64,000 bases of DNA, from contig JAWBQF010000004.1 in the NCBI GenBank assembly GCA_038845975.1, positions 32,001 through 96,000 of the forward strand, given 5' to 3'. The translations under genes and the position numbers were made by a program. The notes under the pieces are model-generated. The model had not been told where the DNA came from. It saw only the letters and a program-made list of their open reading frames with translations, and searched no databases. The stretch comes from Candidatus Methanomethylicia archaeon (GTDB lineage: Archaea > Thermoproteota > Methanomethylicia > CALHIW01). Within the stretch, counting starts at the first letter, position 1. Every line of letters begins with the position of its first letter. Shown in pieces: positions 32,622 through 42,089 of this stretch.

Positions 32622-33188
32622 ATGTTTGAATTACGTCTCCATGGTAGAGGAGGACAAGGTATTGTTACTGCTGCTGAACTTCTTGTTAAGGCCGCATCTA
32701 TAGAAGGAAAGTGGGGTCAAAGCATTCCTATGTTTGGAGCTGAACGTAGAGGAGCTCCTGTTATTGCCTATGCTAGAGTATCTAATAGACCTATTAGAAT
32801 TCATAGTCAAATTTATGAGCCTGATGCTGTTGCCGTATTCGACTCTAGAATTATTGAAATTGTTAATGTTACAAGCGGATTGAAAAATGGTGGAGTTATA
32901 ATTCTTAATACAAGTAGGGGGGTTGAGGGGCTGAAGCTAAATGGTTATAAAGTTGTTACTGTTGATGCTACCAGAATCGCTGTTAATCTTAAACTTGTTA
33001 CTGCTGGTTTCCCTATTGTTAATACAGCTATGATTGGAGCTATAGTTAAAGCTACAGGCTTAGTAAAGCTTGAATCAGTAATTACAGCTATTAGAAATAC
33101 GTGGAGTGGAGGTTTTGCTAATGGAAACATTAAGGCTGTAGAAAAAGCATATGAGGAGACCGTAGGGGTTGATTATGGAGACCCTTGA
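32622..33188 (+). CDS. 2-oxoacid:ferredoxin oxidoreductase gamma subunit (vor-like operon), uninterrupted
   Basis: ELRLHGRGGQG, FGAERRGAPV, NTAMIGA. Confidence 0.93.
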   Translation: MFELRLHGRGGQGIVTAAELLVKAASIEGKWGQSIPMFGAERRGAPVIAYARVSNRPIRIHSQIYEPDAVAVFDSRIIEIVNVTSGLKNGGVIILNTSRGVEGLKLNGYKVVTVDATRIAVNLKLVTAGFPIVNTAMIGAIVKATGLVKLESVITAIRNTWSGGFANGNIKAVEKAYEETVGVDYGDP

Positions 33189-33435
33189 AACACCATTATC
33201 AAAGCCTTCAGAAGGATCAGCTGGAATTACAGGCTACTGGAGAACATTCAAACCAGTAATTAATAAGTCTAAGTGTATAAAATGCTTACTATGCTGGATC
33301 TACTGTCCTGAGGGAACCATAATTAGAGTGGATGATGGTGTAGAGGTTAATTACATGTATTGTAAGGGATGTGGTATATGTGCAAATGAATGTCCAGCTA
33401 AAGCAATAGAGATGGTTTTAGAGGGAGAAATATGA
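33175..33435 (+). CDS. vorD: 2-oxoacid:ferredoxin oxidoreductase delta subunit (2x[4Fe-4S])
   Basis: WRTFKPV, CIKCLLCWIYCP, CKGCGICANECP. Confidence 0.88.
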   Translation: METLETPLSKPSEGSAGITGYWRTFKPVINKSKCIKCLLCWIYCPEGTIIRVDDGVEVNYMYCKGCGICANECPAKAIEMVLEGEI

Positions 33436-34628
33436 GAGTTGTTTTAACAGGTAATCATGCTGCTGCTTACGCTGCATTACTATCAAGAGTTGAAGTTGTA
33501 GCGGCATATCCTATAACACCACAAACCCAAATTGTTGAGAAGCTAGCTGAGTTTATTGAGGGGGGAAGGCTTAAAGCTAAATATATAAGAGTTGAGTCTG
33601 AACATAGTGCGATGGCTGCCATAATTGGTGCTAGTGCTGCTGGTGCAAGAACTTTTACTGCTACAGCTTCACATGGACTTGTATATATGAATGAAATGGT
33701 TTTCTGGGCTGGAAATGCAAGACTACCTATAGTTATGGCTATAGTATGTAGAGCCTTAGCCCCGCCATGGAATATTTGGACTGAACATACAGATATACTT
33801 GCTCAAAGAGATACTGGATGGATTCAGTTTTTCTGTGAAGATAATCAGGAAGTTTTAGATACTGTTATTCAAGCCTTTAAAATAGCTGAAGATGATAGAG
33901 TTTTACTTCCAGTAATGGTTGGTCTTGATGCATTCATACTCTCACATACAGCTACTCCTGTAGATGTTCCAGAACAGGAGGATATTGATGGATTTCTACC
34001 TCCAAGAAAGCCTTTACCATTCATACTTGATGTTAATAATCCGTTAACCCATTCAAACATGGCATATCCTAATCAAACAATGGAGTTTAGATATAGACTT
34101 CAGAAAGCAATGGAGAGAGCTATGAGGGTTATAATGGAAGTAGATGAAGAATATGGAAGATTAACCGGTAGAAAATATGGTGGATTACTAGACTGTTATA
34201 GATGTGAAGATGCTGATTTAGGGGTTATAGTTATGGGATCTTCTGCAGGTGATGCTAAGGAGGCTATAGATAAACTACGTGATGAAGGATATAAGCCTGG
34301 AGTCATTAGGATTAGAGTTTTCAGACCATTTCCAAGGGAAGAACTTAGGGAAATATGTAGAAGATTTAAGGCTATAGCTGTTATTGATAGGGATCTATCC
34401 CCAGGTTTAGGTGGAATACTCTATACTGAAACACTTACAAGTCTATATGATTTAAAGAATAGACCAATAGTTCAAAACTATATAGCTGGATTAGGTGGAA
34501 GAGATATTAGTGTAAATGATTTTAAATTAATTGTTAGGGAATTATATAGAAATATTGAGGAGGGAGTTGAAATAACTCCTATAAGATGGATTGGAATAGA
34601 GGGAGTTAACTATGAGTTTAAAAATTAA
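33432..34628 (+). CDS. vorA: 2-oxoacid (probably ketoisovalerate):ferredoxin oxidoreductase alpha subunit
   Basis: AAYPITPQT, VESEHSAM, TATASHGL, RALAPPWNIW. Confidence 0.85.
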   Translation: MRVVLTGNHAAAYAALLSRVEVVAAYPITPQTQIVEKLAEFIEGGRLKAKYIRVESEHSAMAAIIGASAAGARTFTATASHGLVYMNEMVFWAGNARLPIVMAIVCRALAPPWNIWTEHTDILAQRDTGWIQFFCEDNQEVLDTVIQAFKIAEDDRVLLPVMVGLDAFILSHTATPVDVPEQEDIDGFLPPRKPLPFILDVNNPLTHSNMAYPNQTMEFRYRLQKAMERAMRVIMEVDEEYGRLTGRKYGGLLDCYRCEDADLGVIVMGSSAGDAKEAIDKLRDEGYKPGVIRIRVFRPFPREELREICRRFKAIAVIDRDLSPGLGGILYTETLTSLYDLKNRPIVQNYIAGLGGRDISVNDFKLIVRELYRNIEEGVEITPIRWIGIEGVNYEFKN

Positions 34629-35520
34629 AGATCTTCCTATTGAGGATTATTGGCTACCTGGCAACCCATCATGTCCCGGATGCCCAGCCTCACTTGGATT
34701 AAGATTACTTATGAAAGCCCTTGGACCTAAAACAATAACCATTATACCTGCATGCTGTTCAACAATAATTCAGGGAACATATCCTAAAACCTCAGCAAAC
34801 TTTCCAATACTTAACATAGCGTTTGCAGCTTCAGCAGCTGCTGCTTCAGGCATTGTTGAAGCATTAGAGCTTAAAGGTAAAAATAACGTTAATGTTGTTG
34901 TCTGGGCAGGTGATGGTGGAACTGTAGATATAGGACTGCAAGCGCTTAGTGGTGCTGCAGAGAGAAATGAAAATATTATTTACATATGTTATGATAATGA
35001 AGCGTATATGAATACGGGAATACAGCGTTCAGGCGCAACTCCCTACGGTGCATGGACAACAACAACCATTACAGGTAAAAAGGAACACAAGAAGAATTTA
35101 CCGCTAATAATGATTGCTCATGGAATACCATATGTAGCAACAGCATCAGTATCCTATCCTATAGACTTTATAACTAAATTGAGAAAGGCATCTAAAATTT
35201 ATGGAATGAAGTATATACACTTACATTCTCCATGTCCAACAGGGTGGAGGTTCCCATCAGACAAAACAATAGAAATCGGTAGATTAGCTGTTCTTACAGG
35301 TACATGGATATTATATGAAGTTGAAAATGGAACATTTAAACTAAATCCTCCAAGTAATATCTTAATAGATAAGAGTAAAAGAAAGCCGATAAGAAACTAC
35401 ATAAAGATTCAGGGAAGATTCTCTCATTTAAATGATGAGGATATAGATGAGCTGCAAAAATATGTAGATAGACAGTGGGAAACCTGCTTAAAGCTTCTAT
35501 CTATAGGTAAAGTCTATTAG
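34612..35520 (+). CDS. vorB: 2-oxoacid (probably ketoisovalerate):ferredoxin oxidoreductase beta subunit
   Basis: CPGCPASLGLR, IPACCSTII (Thermococcales VorB-like), GDGGT, DNEAYMNTGIQRS, PCPTGW. Confidence 0.85.
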   Translation: MSLKIKDLPIEDYWLPGNPSCPGCPASLGLRLLMKALGPKTITIIPACCSTIIQGTYPKTSANFPILNIAFAASAAAASGIVEALELKGKNNVNVVVWAGDGGTVDIGLQALSGAAERNENIIYICYDNEAYMNTGIQRSGATPYGAWTTTTITGKKEHKKNLPLIMIAHGIPYVATASVSYPIDFITKLRKASKIYGMKYIHLHSPCPTGWRFPSDKTIEIGRLAVLTGTWILYEVENGTFKLNPPSNILIDKSKRKPIRNYIKIQGRFSHLNDEDIDELQKYVDRQWETCLKLLSIGKVY

Positions 35521-35827: not shown

Positions 35828-37528
35828 GTGACTTGGGAAAAACCTTGGTTTAAATTTTATCCTGTAGGTATTTCAAAAGAAGCTAAGATTCCTGAAGTAA
35901 GATTAGATGAGCTTTTAAAGAAAACCGCACAAGAGTTTCCTGGTAGAGTTTTTCTAAGATTTATGGGGGTTAAGTTTACATTTAGATATGTTGATGAGTT
36001 AGTAGATAGATTTACAACTGCTTTAGCTGATCTTGGTGTTAAAAAGGGAAGTGTTATTGCTATAATGCTTCCAAATTGTCCTCAGTTTGCTATAGCATAT
36101 TATGGAGCCTTAAGAGCCGGGGCAATAGTTACGACTTTAAACCCACTATATACTGCTAGAGAAGTAGAGTTTCAGCTGAATGATAGTGAATCAGAGATAC
36201 TTATAGTTTTAGATGTACTTTATACTAGCATCATTAGAGATATTAAAAATAAGACTTTCATTAAAAAGATAATCATTACAAATATTGCTGATTTCCTACC
36301 GCCATTAAAGAGGATGCTAGGCAAGTTTTTAAAGAAAATTCCTCAAGCTAAAGTTGAAGCAGCACCAGATATATATCTACTAATGAATTTAATTAAAAAA
36401 TATAGGCCAAATCCACCTAAAGTGGATATTAATGTAAAGGATGATGTTGCAGTACTCCTATATACAGGTGGAACAACAGGTACTCCAAAAGGAGCTATGC
36501 TAACACATTACAATATGGTTGCAAATGCTATACAATGTAATCTATGGTCTGGAACCAGAACCGGAGCAGAGGTTCTTATTGGCGTTCTTCCATGGTATCA
36601 TGTTTACGGTCAAACAGTAGTATTGAATAGTGCTGCAGCCATGGGTGGAACGGTAATAGTGTATCCAAGATTTGATGTTGAGGAGATAATGAGAGGTATA
36701 CAGGAAAATAAAGCTACATTATTTCCAGCTGTTGCAACAATATATAATGCTATTAATAATCATCCAAGCGTTAAGAAGTATAGTTTAAGTAGTTTAAGAG
36801 CAGGTATAAGTGGAGCAGGCCCGTTACCACTATCAATACAGGAAACATTTGAGAAGCTTACAGGAGCTTTAATATGTGAGGGATATGGATTAACAGAAGC
36901 AGCACCAGTAACTCATTGTAACCCTCTTAACCCAGAACTTAGAAAGGTGGGAAGTATAGGTATTCCACTACCAAGTACGGATGCTGGTATTATGCATATT
37001 GAGAAAAACGAATTTCTAAAACCTGGAGAAGAAGGGGAAATCGTGGTTTCAGGACCACAGGTTATGAAGGGATACTGGAGGAAACCTGAAGAAACTAGAA
37101 AGACATTAATTGTTATGAATGGGAAAATATGGCTACGTACAGGAGATATTGGGAAGATGGATGAAGATGGATTCTTCTACGTTATTGATCGGAAGAAGGA
37201 GTTAATAAAGTATAAGGGATGGTCTATATATCCGAGAGAAGTAGAGGAAGTACTGTTTAGTCACGAAGCTGTAAAAGATGCAGCAGTAGTAGGAATACCT
37301 GATCCTTCGGTTGGTGAGTGGATTAAAGCATATGTTGTATTAAAAGATGAGTATAAGGGAAAGGTAACAGTAAATGATTTAATAGAATGGTGTAAGAAAA
37401 ATCTTGCTCCATACAAGATACCTAAAGAAATAGAGTTTAGAGATCAATTACCAAGAACAATTGTAGGGAAGCTATTGAGAAGACTATTAAGAGATGAAGA
37501 AATAGCAAAACGTAGAACTACAACATAA
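35828..37528 (+). CDS. Long-chain-fatty-acid--CoA ligase (AMP-forming)
   Basis: YTGGTTGTPKGAML, EGYGLTEA, GPQVMKGYW, WLRTGDIG, LPRTIVGKLLRR. Confidence 0.93.
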   Translation: MTWEKPWFKFYPVGISKEAKIPEVRLDELLKKTAQEFPGRVFLRFMGVKFTFRYVDELVDRFTTALADLGVKKGSVIAIMLPNCPQFAIAYYGALRAGAIVTTLNPLYTAREVEFQLNDSESEILIVLDVLYTSIIRDIKNKTFIKKIIITNIADFLPPLKRMLGKFLKKIPQAKVEAAPDIYLLMNLIKKYRPNPPKVDINVKDDVAVLLYTGGTTGTPKGAMLTHYNMVANAIQCNLWSGTRTGAEVLIGVLPWYHVYGQTVVLNSAAAMGGTVIVYPRFDVEEIMRGIQENKATLFPAVATIYNAINNHPSVKKYSLSSLRAGISGAGPLPLSIQETFEKLTGALICEGYGLTEAAPVTHCNPLNPELRKVGSIGIPLPSTDAGIMHIEKNEFLKPGEEGEIVVSGPQVMKGYWRKPEETRKTLIVMNGKIWLRTGDIGKMDEDGFFYVIDRKKELIKYKGWSIYPREVEEVLFSHEAVKDAAVVGIPDPSVGEWIKAYVVLKDEYKGKVTVNDLIEWCKKNLAPYKIPKEIEFRDQLPRTIVGKLLRRLLRDEEIAKRRTTT

Positions 37529-38132
37529 CCATTATAAAATATACTTAAATAATAAACCTTCTTTATGATAGAATCTCAAGACGCTTGACTACTTAGAGTA
37601 AATTAAAGAAGACGTTAAACCATATAATTCCACCTATTTAAAATCTAGTTAGAATTTAAGAAGTCAAAGTATCACATGCTATTTTATTGCATTCTTCCAT
37701 TCAATTTGCCCTATTATATAGGGTTGTTTACTGTATTGAGCTAAGAATACTTAGTTTTCTATTAAAGATAAATATACTGATTCTACTATGTTTCTCTTAC
37801 TAAAAGATGTTTCTGACATGGTTTAAATTTAGTACTTACATGCTACTCTATAATTGTCCTGCCAACCTAGATTTCATATTTATGTGCTGATAAGTAATGA
37901 ATGTAAAGTATGTAAGCTTAATAATATTTAAAGTAGATGTATACAGATAAGTCAAAATAATTTATTAGTTTTTAAAAGTATTGAGTAACATAATAAATGT
38001 ATAATTTAGATGCTGGAATTATAGGAATGTGTTAGAAAGATGAAAATAATAAAACTTCTAAAGATCACAAAGCCCTCTAGTTTTAACGATAGGCTTATAT
38101 ACTATTACTAAAAATACTTTTTGGTGTTCTAT

Positions 38133-38732
38133 ATGTCTTGGAATGAGGATTTTCCATCATGGTGGCGTAGAAGAAGAAAAAGCATACTTCCATCTTTTGA
38201 GGATATATTTGCAGAGTTTGATAGAATATTTGAGGAAATGTTACGTGGAATAGGTGAGGAAATTCCTAGAGGTTTAATTAGAGAAAGAAGACTTCCAGAT
38301 GGTAGGATAGTCCGTGAAACTGGACCAATAGTATGGGGATATTCAGTAACTATAGGCCCTGATGGAAAGCCACAAATAAGAGAATTCGGAAATGTTAAGC
38401 CTAGAATTAAGGAAACACCGTTCGGCGCTAAACCATCAGTAGAGGTTTTGGAAGAAAGAGAGCCGCTAGTTGATGTCATTGAGACAGAAGACCAAGTTAA
38501 GATTATAGCAGAGCTACCAGGTGTAGAGAAAGATGATATAAAGCTTAATGCAACAGAGAAAACACTTACAATATCTGTTGATACTGAGAGAAGAAGATAC
38601 TATAAGGAGCTTCAACTACCAGTAGAAGTTGATCCTGAAAGTGCTAAGGCATCATATAAAAATGGAGTATTAGAAGTGCAATTAGTAAAGAAAATTAAGA
38701 GTAAACCAGGAAAACATATTAAAATAGAGTAA
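38133..38732 (+). CDS. hsp20: Archaeal small heat-shock protein Hsp20
   Basis: GPIVWGYSVTIGPDGKPQIREFGN, EPLVDV, AELPGVEK, ASYKNGVLEV. Confidence 0.93.
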   Translation: MSWNEDFPSWWRRRRKSILPSFEDIFAEFDRIFEEMLRGIGEEIPRGLIRERRLPDGRIVRETGPIVWGYSVTIGPDGKPQIREFGNVKPRIKETPFGAKPSVEVLEEREPLVDVIETEDQVKIIAELPGVEKDDIKLNATEKTLTISVDTERRRYYKELQLPVEVDPESAKASYKNGVLEVQLVKKIKSKPGKHIKIE

Positions 38733-39114
38733 CATCTAAACTAATCTTAGTGACCATCTTTTTCATCCTAACTATTACTAGGATAGAGTCTATCTCGATA
38801 TTGTATTCATCAACTATACTTCCTAATCAATATGAATTACAGATGATAGCTCACAGAATCTATGAATCCTACATAGAGTTTCATAGCTTAATAGGTAAAA
38901 TCCTACTCATACATCTTAAGCTACATCCAAGAATAAGTTAATAAACTGTAATCAAATATAAATGATGTCCTCATCCCCTGAAGAAACTATAATTGCTAAC
39001 CATACTCAATATCAGAATGGGAATATACCCAAATAAAACTTCCAAAGTTGATGGGGCAATTATTTAAAATGGAAACATTTAAGTGTATGTAATAAATTAG
39101 GGCATGGTGAGGCT

Positions 39115-39720
39115 ATGAAGTTTATTGAAATTAGATGGCATGGTAGAGGTGGTATGGGAATAGTTACTGTTGCAAGAATACTTGCAGAAGCAGCGCTTCT
39201 GGAGGGAAGATATTCACAGGCATTTCCTCATTTCGGCCCAGAATGTAGTATCTAGGCCTATAGGCCTAGATACTACCTGGAGCGTTCAGGAGCTCCTGTA
39301 GATGGATTTACTAGAATTGCAGATTTTCCTATTGAAATTCATAGTCAAATTTATAATCCTGATGTTGTTGTAGTAGTAGATCCAACATTGATTGGAGTTA
39401 TTGATGTTACACATGGACTTAAAAAGGATGGGAAATTAGTAATTAACTTTAGAGGGAAACCAATCGATATTAGGAATAAACTTAATATTGATAAAAGTAT
39501 AAAGGTTTTTGTTGTTGATGCTAAAAGAATAGCTTTAGATATTTTAGGTAGACCTATCTATAATACACCTATGCTTGGTGCTACTATTAAAGCTATTGAA
39601 GGACTTGTTTCATTAAAATCAGTAGTTGAAGCTACTATGAGTAGGTTTAAGGGAGAGTTAGGATTAAAAAACGTTGAAGCTATTAAAAGAGCTTATGAAG
39701 AGGTGATTTCCGATGAGTAA
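39115..39720 (+). CDS. porC: Pyruvate:ferredoxin oxidoreductase gamma subunit, split by an intron: join(39115..39243, 39283..39720)
   Basis: Exon 1 reads [15 protein letters not shown]...AFPHFGPE and exon 2 reads [12 protein letters not shown]...NTPMLGA..KRAYEEV. Both are in the same frame, separated by 39 nt containing TAG. RBS-like GGTGA at 39106. Confidence 0.9.
39244..39282 (+). other. 39-nt archaeal bulge-helix-bulge (BHB) intron in mRNA
   Basis: Central helix CCAG(39238-41)/CTGG(39277-80). The 3-nt bulges are AAT(39242-44) and AGC(39281-83). The inner stem is a perfect 32-nt palindrome (39245-39276) and the outer stem is GGC/GTT. Canonical cuts restore FGPERSGAPV. Confidence 0.88.
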
Positions 39721-39991
39721 AACTGGATGGCGTAGCTTACCAGTTGCAGGTATTATTCCTAAAGCTGGCTCCAGTTTAGAATATAAGACAGGTACATGGA
39801 GAGCTTTTAAACCAGTAGTTGATGAGAGTAAATGTACGTTCTGCTTATTATGCTGGATCTATTGTCCTGATGGAGCTGTTAAACGTTTTGATAGTAATAG
39901 AAAGATTTCTATTGATTACGATTACTGTAAAGGATGTGGTATATGTGCTTCAGAATGCCCTGTTAAGGCTATAAGTATGGTGGAGGAGTGA
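39713..39991 (+). CDS. porD: Pyruvate:ferredoxin oxidoreductase delta subunit
   Basis: KTGTWRAFKPV, CTFCLLCWIYCP, CKGCGICASECP. Confidence 0.92.
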   Translation: MSKTGWRSLPVAGIIPKAGSSLEYKTGTWRAFKPVVDESKCTFCLLCWIYCPDGAVKRFDSNRKISIDYDYCKGCGICASECPVKAISMVEE

Positions 39992-41169
39992 GTACTATGA
40001 GGATTATTGGTTTAACAGGTGATGAGGCTGTAGCTTATGCTGTTAAGCAGTGTGACGTTGATGTTATTGCTGCATATCCCATTACACCACAGACAATCAT
40101 TGTTGAGAGAATTAGTGATTTTGTTGCTAACGGTGAAATAGATGCTGAATATGTATGTGTTGAATCAGAACATTCAGCTCTCTCCGCATGTATTGGTGCA
40201 AGTGTAATGGGTGCTAGAGTATTTACTGCTACAGCTAGTCAGGGTCTAGCTTTAATGCATGAAATACTCTATATAGCTTCCTCTCTTAGGCTACCTATTG
40301 TTATGGCTGTTGTAAATAGAGCCTTATCTGCACCTATTAATATTCATGGAGACCATTCTGATATGATGGGGTCTAGAGATTGTGGATGGATTCAAATTTA
40401 TACTGAAAACGCTCAGGAAGCATATGACACTACAATTCAAGCATTTAAAATTGCTGAAGACCCCAATGCATCTCTACCTGTAACTGTTAATCTTGACGGT
40501 TTTATAATTTCACATTCAATGGAGAGAGTTGAAATCCTAAATGATGAAGATGTTAAAAGATTTCTCCCACCTAGAAAACCTTTATATAGACTTGATGTAG
40601 AAAACCCAATAACTATTGGGTCACTATGCTTTACCGATTACTACTTCGAGTTTAAAAGACAGCAAGCCGAAGCCATAGAGGAATCATACAAGACAATAAT
40701 GAGTGTTATGAATGAATATAGTAAAGCATCAGGTAGAAGCTATAAGTTTATAGATACATATGGTATTGAAGATGCTGAGGTACTGATTGTCTGCATGGGA
40801 AGTACATGTGGAACTGCTAGATTTACAGCTAAAAGACTAAGAGAAAGAGGAGAGAAAGTAGGAATTGTTAAGGTATCACTATATAGACCGTTTCCAAGTA
40901 AAGAAATAATTGAAGCTATCAAAAATGCTGAAGCCCTGGTTGTTATGGATAGAGCTGTAAGCTTTGGGGCTCCCTCAGGACCGCTATGCTCAGACATTAA
41001 AAATACACTATATGATGCTGGATTAAGAATAAAGATTTTAAATATAATCTATGGTCTTGGAGGAAGAGATGTCTCACAAAGTGATGTAGAGCAAGCGTTT
41101 AAGCTAGGCTTTAAATTAAAATCAGGAGATGTAAAAGATAAAGTCTTATGGCTAGGGGTGAGAGAATAA
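39988..41169 (+). CDS. porA: Pyruvate:ferredoxin oxidoreductase alpha subunit
   Basis: AAYPITPQT, ESEHSA, TATASQGLALMHE, NRALSAPINIHGDHSD. Confidence 0.93.
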   Translation: MSTMRIIGLTGDEAVAYAVKQCDVDVIAAYPITPQTIIVERISDFVANGEIDAEYVCVESEHSALSACIGASVMGARVFTATASQGLALMHEILYIASSLRLPIVMAVVNRALSAPINIHGDHSDMMGSRDCGWIQIYTENAQEAYDTTIQAFKIAEDPNASLPVTVNLDGFIISHSMERVEILNDEDVKRFLPPRKPLYRLDVENPITIGSLCFTDYYFEFKRQQAEAIEESYKTIMSVMNEYSKASGRSYKFIDTYGIEDAEVLIVCMGSTCGTARFTAKRLRERGEKVGIVKVSLYRPFPSKEIIEAIKNAEALVVMDRAVSFGAPSGPLCSDIKNTLYDAGLRIKILNIIYGLGGRDVSQSDVEQAFKLGFKLKSGDVKDKVLWLGVRE

Positions 41170-42089
41170 TGGTTACCCTTAGGGAATTACCAATTGAGGA
41201 CTATATCGTATCTGGACATAGAATGTGTGCTGGATGCGGATCAGCTATTGCTGCAAGAATGGCTTTAAAAGCTGCAGGACCAAATACAATTGTTGTAAAT
41301 GCTACTGGATGCCTTGAAGTAGCAACAACAATTTATCCATATACTTCTTGGAGGATTCCATGGATACATGTAGCCTTTGAAAATGCAGCTGCTGTTGCAA
41401 GCGGTATTGAAGCAGCCATAAGAGTATTAACTAGGAAAAACTTGATGAAACAGAAGCCCAACATCATAGCTTTTGGAGGAGATGGAGGAACCTTTGATAT
41501 AGGAATTCAAGCATTATCTGGAGCATTAGAGAGAGGACATAGATTCCTATACATATGCTATGATAATGAAGCCTATATGAATACTGGAATACAACGTAGT
41601 GGAGCAACTCCACTTGGTGCTGCTACAACTACAAGTCCCTCAGGCAGAGTTATACCTGGTAAGAAAGAGTGGAAAAAGGACTTAATAGGTATCGCTGTTG
41701 CACATAATATTCCATATGCAGCTACAGCATGCATATCATATTGGAGTGACTATATTAATAAGGTTAAAAAGGCCTTAAGCTTTAATGGACCTACAGTTAT
41801 CCATGTTCTTTCACCATGCCAGCTTGGATGGCGTTTTGATCCTAGTGAAACAATAAAATTAGGTAGGTTAGCAGTACAAACCAGGATATTCCCAATATAT
41901 GAGGTTGAATATGGTAAATATAAATTAAATATTAATGTAACAAAGCCTTTACCAGTTATAGAGTATATAAGGATACAGGGTAGATTTAGGCATTTACTTG
42001 AACCACAAAACAGCCATATTATTGAAGACATACAGAAAAACATTAATTTACAGTGGAATCGTTTACTTAAACTTTGCAGTATAGAGTAA
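41169..42089 (+). CDS. porB: Pyruvate:ferredoxin oxidoreductase beta subunit
   Basis: GHRMCAGCG, TGCLEV..YPYTSW, FENAAAVASG, GGDGGTFDIG, DNEAYMNTGIQRS. TAATG coupling at 41167-41171. Confidence 0.93.
   Translation: MVTLRELPIEDYIVSGHRMCAGCGSAIAARMALKAAGPNTIVVNATGCLEVATTIYPYTSWRIPWIHVAFENAAAVASGIEAAIRVLTRKNLMKQKPNIIAFGGDGGTFDIGIQALSGALERGHRFLYICYDNEAYMNTGIQRSGATPLGAATTTSPSGRVIPGKKEWKKDLIGIAVAHNIPYAATACISYWSDYINKVKKALSFNGPTVIHVLSPCQLGWRFDPSETIKLGRLAVQTRIFPIYEVEYGKYKLNINVTKPLPVIEYIRIQGRFRHLLEPQNSHIIEDIQKNINLQWNRLLKLCSIE

Follow-up and report, generated by a model that had tools for sequence, protein, structure and literature searches.

A predicted bulge-helix-bulge intron inside the porC reading frame of Methanomethylicia and related archaea

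The window analysed here, a stretch of 64,000 nucleotides, comes from the genome of a hot-spring archaeon of the class Methanomethylicia (G000; 2.77 Mb, 76 contigs, 93% complete) and contains a gene, porC, whose reading frame is interrupted by a short insert that we predict to be an intron of the bulge-helix-bulge (BHB) type. As judged by Pfam and NCBIfam models, porC specifies the gamma subunit of pyruvate/2-oxoacid:ferredoxin oxidoreductase (POR) and is the first gene of a porC-porD-porA-porB operon. The frame that opens at position 39115 reads ...AFPHFGPE, runs into 13 foreign codons (39244-39282), and then resumes through to a stop codon at 39718-39720. The insert falls within the FG.ER.GAP motif of porC, which is the most conserved motif of the family. 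An earlier note on this DNA had described a 13-codon insert with an in-frame TAG at this motif, and both the sequence and the open reading frame agree with that description. The parts of the gene are as follows.

39115..39243, + strand: porC exon 1, 43 codons ending in ...FGPE; matches TIGR02175 (PorC_KorC) positions 2-41 and PF01558 positions 1-32
39244..39282, + strand: predicted 39-nt BHB intron, with an in-frame TAG at 39253-39255; same site in one related genome (G001) and three metagenome loci (L040, L041 and L042)
39283..39720, + strand: porC exon 2, 145 codons plus stop (39718-39720), beginning RSGAP...; matches TIGR02175 positions 42-175; ratio of nonsynonymous to synonymous substitution rates (dN/dS) 0.05-0.21

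Without 39244-39282, the sequence reads ...CCA GAA followed directly by CGT TCA GGA.... Exon 1 ends at position 41 of the 177 positions of TIGR02175 and exon 2 begins at position 42, so the two halves abut exactly, with no residue missing and none extra; three other PorC-type models give the same 41-42 junction. The endonuclease EndA cleaves a BHB after the second base of each bulge, a rule that we applied here as established knowledge. The expectation in the earlier note that this rule would remove exactly 39244-39282 and yield a contiguous PorC was borne out, with the junction falling between profile positions 41 and 42 and the frame restored.

The insert is a genuine, conserved feature of the genome. 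Two DNA sequencing runs from separate studies (X6 and X7), neither flagged as a possible source of the assembly, contain contigs spanning 38900-39274 (0 differences) and 39247-41591 (5 differences). These contigs cover both junctions and the whole insert, and no joint that skips the insert was present in the DNA runs, which upholds the proposal that the insert is genomic. The contigs of X6 and X7 start or stop inside a 32-nt palindrome (39245-39276), and X7 additionally contains a 32-nt record of exactly that stretch. We attribute these breaks to the encounter of a k = 31 graph with a 32-nt palindrome, an effect through which such introns could go unnoticed where contigs are short. Breaks of this kind in Logan contigs do illustrate that assemblers struggle at the palindrome, and the insert might on that ground be taken for an assembly artefact; yet both junctions are covered in the two DNA runs, and the same insert, with substitutions, occurs in the independent assemblies G001, L040, L041 and L042. 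The chance of an artefact is therefore close to negligible. With regard to copy number, the window contains a single instance of the palindrome, where chance predicts 0, and the genome as a whole (2.77 Mb) has no further one even when up to 3 mismatches are allowed. A search of G000 with a covariance model (R1) returned only the intron site itself, together with the palindrome on the opposite strand, and no other copy; across 62 genomes of the class the model returned only the sites in G000 and G001, the remaining matches having E values of ~0.3 or worse.

The RNA specified by 39225-39296 has a minimum-free-energy fold of -35.2 kcal/mol, compared with a mean of -18.7 for shuffled sequences (z = -5.21; 0/200 shuffles as good). 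The elements of the proposed structure, with their behaviour in this fold and in the five sequences of the 39-nt clade described below, are listed here.

39235..39237, + strand: 5' strand of a weak outer helix (GGC), which pairs with 39284-39286 (GUU) through two G-U pairs and one C-G pair; invariant; absent from the minimum-free-energy fold
39238..39241, + strand: 5' strand of the central 4-bp helix (CCAG, exon), which pairs with 39277-39280; invariant and paired in 5/5 sequences; in the minimum-free-energy fold
39242..39244, + strand: 5' three-base bulge (AAU), which the minimum-free-energy fold leaves unpaired; predicted cut between 39243 and 39244
39245..39276, + strand: inner helix, a perfect 14-bp hairpin (39245-39258 with 39263-39276) with a loop at 39259-39262; 69/70 cells paired, with both-sided changes in 4/14 pairs
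39277..39280, + strand: 3' strand of the central helix (CUGG, intron), in the minimum-free-energy fold and in the alignment of the 39-nt clade
39281..39283, + strand: 3' bulge (AGC), conditional on formation of the outer helix GGC/GUU; predicted cut between 39282 and 39283

Among 40 relatives searched, G001 is the sole other genome of the same genus and family, and it contains a 39-nt insert at the same site. A metagenome scan returned 13 loci, one of which is identical to the window while three more (L040-L042, with 84-86% protein identity) are insert-bearing. We aligned the five distinct sequences available (the window, G001, L040, L041 and L042), to which we refer as the 39-nt clade. The proposed structure is paired in 104/105 cells of this alignment, and the outer helix and central helix together account for 35/35. 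In the hairpin, 4/14 pairs are altered on both sides, from C-G to U-A or from G-C to U-A or A-U, and two pairs of G001 are U-G wobbles, which would hold in sense-strand RNA but not in its complement. Variation is confined to the upper stem and the loop (9 columns), and neither the BHB core nor the exon bases within it vary. The in-frame TAG is retained in 5/5 sequences, and the "codons" of the insert change non-synonymously, tracking base pairing instead of codon sense. The five exon codons that form the BHB are also identical across the clade, against a background of 84/145, although as a sign of constraint this identity (product ~0.07) is only suggestive.

Since every copy of the gene contains an in-frame stop or a frameshift, and since G000 has two other gamma-subunit genes, one could suppose that a palindromic insertion, such as a hairpin element or one resembling a miniature inverted-repeat transposable element (MITE), inactivated porC and that the intact paralogues suffice. 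The selection data contradict this. Using the Nei-Gojobori method on the ten pairs of sequences in the 39-nt clade, we obtained dN/dS values of 0.05-0.34 for exon 1 and 0.05-0.21 for exon 2, with synonymous divergence (dS) of up to 0.6. Both exons are under purifying selection (dN/dS mostly 0.05-0.2), which at this divergence argues against a gene that has been dead since the common ancestor. Moreover, over the first 35 codons of exon 2, which precede any in-frame ATG, GTG or TTG, dN/dS is 0.05-0.12 with one pair at 0.46, which likewise argues against a gene translated solely from an internal start. A MITE-like element would be expected in several copies, yet the insert is single-copy in the genome; it has been kept at one site across three families with compensatory changes; and the downstream genes porD, porA and porB are intact. 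We consider a dead gene highly improbable.

The predicted intron is not confined to this genome and belongs to a conserved family represented by nine distinct sequences of five lengths. TIGR02175, run against 401 genomes of the phylum, identified one porC with an internal TGA (G332), in which an insert of 24 nt lies at exactly the same boundary between Glu and Arg. Searching the same 401 genomes with exon 2 gave close matches in 68, of which five had an open frame shorter than 170 aa (G000, G001, G332, G312 and G352). G403 escaped this open-frame screen because the frame that remains with its 23-nt insert happens to be 188 aa long; it was added by a search among 61 relatives of G332. We read the junctions in 92 locus rows, covering exon 2 matches only where a locus had been retrieved. 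Too distant to enter this listing were three metagenome loci (L049-L051, out of 13) and eight genome-contig loci (L055-L062, out of 11). Inserts were present in 13 of the 92 rows, corresponding to the nine distinct sequences, and the other 79 read an uninterrupted FG(P/A/V)E-R, so that the comparison with porC orthologues that had been proposed bears out a shared site. The inserts outside the 39-nt clade are the following.

L094:1477-1500: insert of G332, 24 nt
L098:1921-1943, minus strand: insert of G403, 23 nt
L096:1479-1500: insert of G312, 22 nt
L093:1481-1500: insert of G352, 20 nt

The insert-bearing lineages are three families of a single phylum and represent at least two of its classes. 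The class Methanomethylicia contains the 39-nt clade but not the two families with short inserts (f49 and f54). All four short inserts share one plan, consisting of a CCCG/CGGG helix, a three-base 5' bulge, a hairpin of 5-6 bp, and three bases before exon 2. Pairing within this group is complete (44/44 cells), and one hairpin pair varies in a compensatory way, with two members having C-G and two U-A. The third pair of the central helix is likewise A-U in the 39-nt clade and C-G in the short group. A 4-bp helix with a three-base 5' bulge beside an inner helix is common to 9/9 distinct sequences, and is present in the minimum-free-energy fold for the window and for three of the four short introns. 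All intron-bearing porC genes read FGPE-R(S/R/M)GAP, and Pro is also frequent at that position in intronless homologues. Because many intronless homologues have this Pro, the exon half of the central helix (CCNG) is already present in them, and the FGPE-R site may be a favoured landing site for introns.

Whichever of the five lengths is removed by cleavage after the second base of each bulge (39, 24, 23, 22 or 20 nt), the reading frame is regained. The predicted cuts place the end of exon 1 at position 41 of TIGR02175 and the beginning of exon 2 at position 42 in all five lineages tested (window, G332, G312, G403 and G352); in the four short-intron genomes exon 1 matches positions 1-41 and exon 2 matches from position 42 on. 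In G312 and G403, where the 3' bulge is AUA, the invariant Glu results only from the BHB register, the other registers giving Asp. These lengths also bear on the idea that the insert is translated, either by read-through of the TAG to give a 13-residue insertion or with PorC made as two polypeptides. The 39-nt and 24-nt inserts are multiples of three, as read-through would need, but three of the five lengths (23, 22 and 20 nt) are not and shift the frame, and the insert is therefore not a translated insertion. Substitutions that obey base pairing and not codon sense argue in the same direction, and a translated insert would split the most conserved motif of the family. Matches to PylS all fall under the cut-off (34.1 bits versus 178.15), which speaks against read-through, and the lack of an in-frame ATG, GTG or TTG between the TAG and exon 2 speaks against two polypeptides. 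We regard translation of the insert as exceedingly improbable.

The same protein could also be made from unspliced RNA by programmed translational bypassing, of which phage T4 gene 60 and the mitochondrial "byp" elements are examples, if ribosomes left the message at the Glu codon ahead of the hairpin and resumed at a second Glu codon with which the insert ends. The window is suited to such an event, as GAA (39241-39243) and GAG (39280-39282) both specify Glu, are 39 nt apart, and have a stable hairpin and an in-frame stop between them. In G312 and G403, though, the triplet before exon 2 is GAU (GAG/GAU), so a matching landing codon is absent; and bypassing needs neither the exact 4-bp helix nor three-base bulges, yet these are invariant in 9/9 sequences. 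We know of no precedent for bypassing in archaea, and to our knowledge a BHB in any archaeal transcript would be expected to be cut by EndA. Bypassing is accordingly very unlikely indeed.

The enzymes that BHB splicing would call upon are encoded in the intron-bearing genomes. G000 has two loci above the cut-off for the EndA catalytic domain (in the regions of G000:C1:60193-60450 and G000:C30:24213-24473), a two-subunit arrangement, and one RtcB (G000:C28:13960-15267). Two EndA loci were likewise found in each of G332, G312, G403 and G352, and one in G001 (62% complete); RtcB is present in 5/5 of these other genomes, such that EndA and RtcB occur together in all six. One EndA gene lies 33-45 kb from the intron-bearing porC on the same contig in three short-intron genomes (G332:C3, G312:C38 and G352:C1), which is probably conserved synteny without meaning.

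Cutting by EndA need not be followed by productive rejoining of the exons, in which case the element would be a destabilising or regulatory cut site and not a true intron. In rRNA processing stems, a BHB is known to be cut without exon joining as its purpose. A BHB intron has also been described in the 5' untranslated region (UTR) of Haloferax HVO_1309 (PMC7714728). Against cleavage alone, exon 2 is under strongly purifying selection from its first codon even though no start codon is conserved in it, and in five lineages cleavage at the predicted sites gives back the exact frame; neither frame nor selection would matter without ligation. We judge this explanation very unlikely.

From these comparisons of sequence and predicted structure, we put at roughly 85% the probability that 39244-39282 is a BHB intron removed from porC mRNA and a member of a conserved family. 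The earlier proposal of a tRNA-type spliced porC mRNA is thereby supported in silico, through the shared site, the restored frame, covariation, selection and the presence of EndA and RtcB.

Several observations weigh against this reading. The earlier note had called the BHB canonical, and the minimum-free-energy fold does contain the CCAG/CUGG helix, the AAU bulge and the inner hairpin. It lacks the pure AGC bulge closed by GGC/GUU: on the 3' side the fold prefers a 2x2 internal loop, which includes 39281-39282 and is closed by CG/CG (two C-G pairs). The bulge closed by GGC/GUU is an alternative of similar geometry and requires the outer helix, which is weak and has two G-U pairs. Within the short group the outer helix amounts to a single C-G or U-G pair and the minimum-free-energy folds give an internal loop; the fold of G312 is without the central helix, and the short introns are barely more stable than their shuffles (z = -0.9 to -2.2). 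As modelled, then, the 5' half of the BHB is of textbook form, and the 3' half is weak or relaxed and canonical only if the outer helix forms. According to the available text of one study, two-subunit EndAs are reported to accept relaxed BHB forms (PMC5829648), and an internal loop in place of the 3' bulge would fit such forms. In addition, exon homology alone allows four registers in the 39-, 24- and 20-nt cases because GAA and GAG both specify Glu.

In metatranscriptome runs X16 and X19 (shares 0.12 and 0.06) no contig covers 39221-39327, and thus neither a spliced nor an unspliced transcript was seen there. Near-identical contigs in these RNA runs fall solely on porA and porB (X16, 40052-40319 and 41232-41439; X19, 40311-40571), and since DNA can occur in RNA libraries they merely hint at transcription of porCDAB. 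Strict and relaxed BHB motif scans of G000 found no second mRNA BHB intron, although the sensitivity of these scans is doubtful. The strict motif gave 77,665 candidates, of which 2,526 fuse open frames of at least 40 codons; 647 of those are no longer than 160 nt, and 6 keep the BHB in the minimum-free-energy fold. The relaxed motif gave 142,595 candidates, with 1,556 fusing open frames and 6 keeping the BHB. The porC intron was the sole convincing candidate, at -0.52 kcal/mol per nt versus -0.27 for the next best. Checked against the 15 tRNA introns called by aragorn in G000, the strict motif matched none and the relaxed motif 5/15; the aragorn calls themselves look unreliable as a control, which leaves the sensitivity of the scans unproven.

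Other candidates from the scans were set aside. One on C15 was rejected as lying in another frame of an intact dehydrogenase-like gene and one on C12 as the point where an ABC ATPase gene meets a permease gene; those on C23, C14, C62, C2, C24, C1 and C10 were weak. Weak BHB-like segments with poor folding energies (-0.1 to -0.2 kcal/mol per nt) lie at C23:25799-25869, C14:16775-16896 and C62:4259-4312 of G000; their removal would join long open frames, and they are most likely gene boundaries or chance. Aragorn called 26 tRNA genes in G000, 15 of them with introns, several odd in position or length, among them one of 179 nt in tRNA-Ile(aat). This genome is probably rich in tRNA introns that aragorn handles poorly.

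If the insert is a BHB intron, processing of the porC transcript would proceed as follows. The exon sequence CCAG and the intron sequence CUGG would form the 4-bp central helix and the 14-bp hairpin the inner helix, placing the splice sites in three-base bulges on opposite strands. The two-subunit EndA would cut after the second base of each bulge, between 39243 and 39244 and between 39282 and 39283, whereupon RtcB would ligate the exons and probably also circularise the 39-nt intron. Only the spliced mRNA would encode full PorC with its FGPE-RSGAP motif; on unspliced mRNA translation would end at the TAG after 46 codons.

As for the history of the element, we built a quick maximum-likelihood tree of the exon 2 protein (83 rows, 140 columns), having dropped nine of the 92 rows as duplicates (L039, L052, L097 and L099) or as distant (L046, L047, L048, L053 and L054). 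Intron-bearing rows fall into three groups in this tree. When all nine were constrained to a single clade, the log-likelihood was 4.46 above that of the free tree, and the approximately unbiased (AU) test did not reject the constraint (p-AU 0.581). One ancient gain, inherited vertically or transferred with the operon, is therefore possible, and repeated gain at a favoured site is possible as well.

The remaining genes of the operon, and a second operon of the same kind upstream, are listed here.

39713..39991, + strand: porD (delta subunit, two 4Fe-4S clusters); NF040684 PorD_Arch, 121.2 bits (cut-off 120); its ATG overlaps the end of porC
39988..41169, + strand: porA (alpha subunit), with POR_N and PFOR_II domains; NF040682, 511.6 bits, under the cut-off of 550
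41148..42089, + strand: porB (beta subunit, thiamine diphosphate binding); NF008819 PorB, 411.7 bits (cut-off 405)
32622..35520, + strand: paralogous gamma-delta-alpha-beta operon, intact and intron-free

The three genes downstream of porC are all intact. The paralogous gamma gene (32622-33188), which heads its own four-gene operon, is uninterrupted and reads MFGAERRGAPV, just as the earlier note had reported for its motif, and a third gamma-subunit gene lies on another contig of G000. The two paralogous 2-oxoacid:ferredoxin oxidoreductase operons (32622-35520 and 39115-42089) are 3.6 kb apart, separated by a gene similar to AMP-forming acyl-CoA synthetases (35828-37528) and an Hsp20-like gene (38121-38732); both operons are also found on one contig in G001.

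The start codon of porD overlaps the final codons of porC (39713-39720), and by virtue of this overlap translation of porD may be coupled to full translation of spliced porC. One can go further and imagine an ancient, selected element that ties expression of the whole operon to splicing by EndA and RtcB. Translation of unspliced mRNA would stop after 46 codons, before it reached the overlapping porD start, and splicing would in that case be a post-transcriptional gate on an enzyme of central carbon and redox metabolism, the archaeal counterpart of HAC1/XBP1-type splicing, with an excised circle of 20-39 nt that might have a role of its own. We think this extension conceivable but unlikely.

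Were the predicted porC splicing true, it would define a rare second family of BHB introns in archaeal reading frames, after cbf5, and would imply that the tRNA splicing machinery edits mRNAs more widely than thought. The intron would sit in a core energy-metabolism enzyme and be conserved over at least two classes in five length variants. Standard annotation will label such porC genes as pseudogenes or frameshifted, so that the metabolism of uncultured hot-spring lineages is understated. The nine natural variants also offer a ready test panel for the substrate rules of EndA.

The closest known system is the pre-mRNA intron in cbf5 of Crenarchaeota, reportedly described by Watanabe and colleagues in 2002. 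In the accessible portion of a later study, cbf5 stands as the confirmed case of archaeal pre-mRNA splicing, other genes having unconfirmed predictions only (Yokobori et al. 2009, PMC2738675). Our literature search, which took in Danan et al. 2012 and papers on sRNA (2021), a ligase (2022), EndA structure (2025) and Asgard archaea (a 2026 preprint) and did not cover most subscription journals, found no BHB intron in a POR gene, with cbf5 the only reading-frame case there, and the word "intron" occurs zero times in the available text of the Culexarchaeia paper. Like the predicted porC intron, the cbf5 intron is a short BHB-type intron within a coding frame, is found in hosts with a hetero-oligomeric EndA, is patchy across related lineages, and is described as a substrate of the tRNA-splicing machinery. 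The two differ in that cbf5 specifies an RNA pseudouridine synthase and porC a subunit of a central carbon-metabolism enzyme, in their hosts (Crenarchaeota versus Methanomethylicia and two other families), and in that splicing was shown experimentally for cbf5 and is predicted from sequence for porC. The cbf5 gene of G000 (G000:C28:34018-34962) is itself uninterrupted, with a 330-aa open frame that matches TIGR00425 positions 8-321 and contains no stop.

Haloferax volcanii HVO_1309, for which the portion of the report available describes a BHB intron in the 5' UTR and names cbf5 as the sole other example (Schwarz et al. 2020, PMC7714728), resembles porC as an mRNA substrate of EndA outside tRNA and rRNA. 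Its intron lies in an untranslated leader, whereas the porC intron interrupts the frame inside a motif of the catalytic domain. With archaeal tRNA introns (hBHBh' and relaxed forms) the porC intron shares the 4-bp helix and, as predicted, the opposite three-base bulges and the cut positions, and 20-39 nt is within their usual length range; unlike them it has no tRNA body, and the exon part of its helix consists of codons (Gly-Pro-Glu, then Arg).

Finally, eukaryotes process HAC1 and XBP1 mRNAs by unconventional splicing, in which the endonuclease IRE1 acts as part of a stress-regulated switch. RtcB acts in XBP-1 splicing, as stated in the accessible part of one paper (PMC8718801). Predicted porC splicing resembles this system in removing a non-spliceosomal intron from a coding mRNA by an endonuclease and RtcB-type ligation, with an altered protein readout. 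The endonuclease and the RNA motif are different, and where HAC1/XBP1 splicing is a stress-regulated switch, for porC we claim no regulation.

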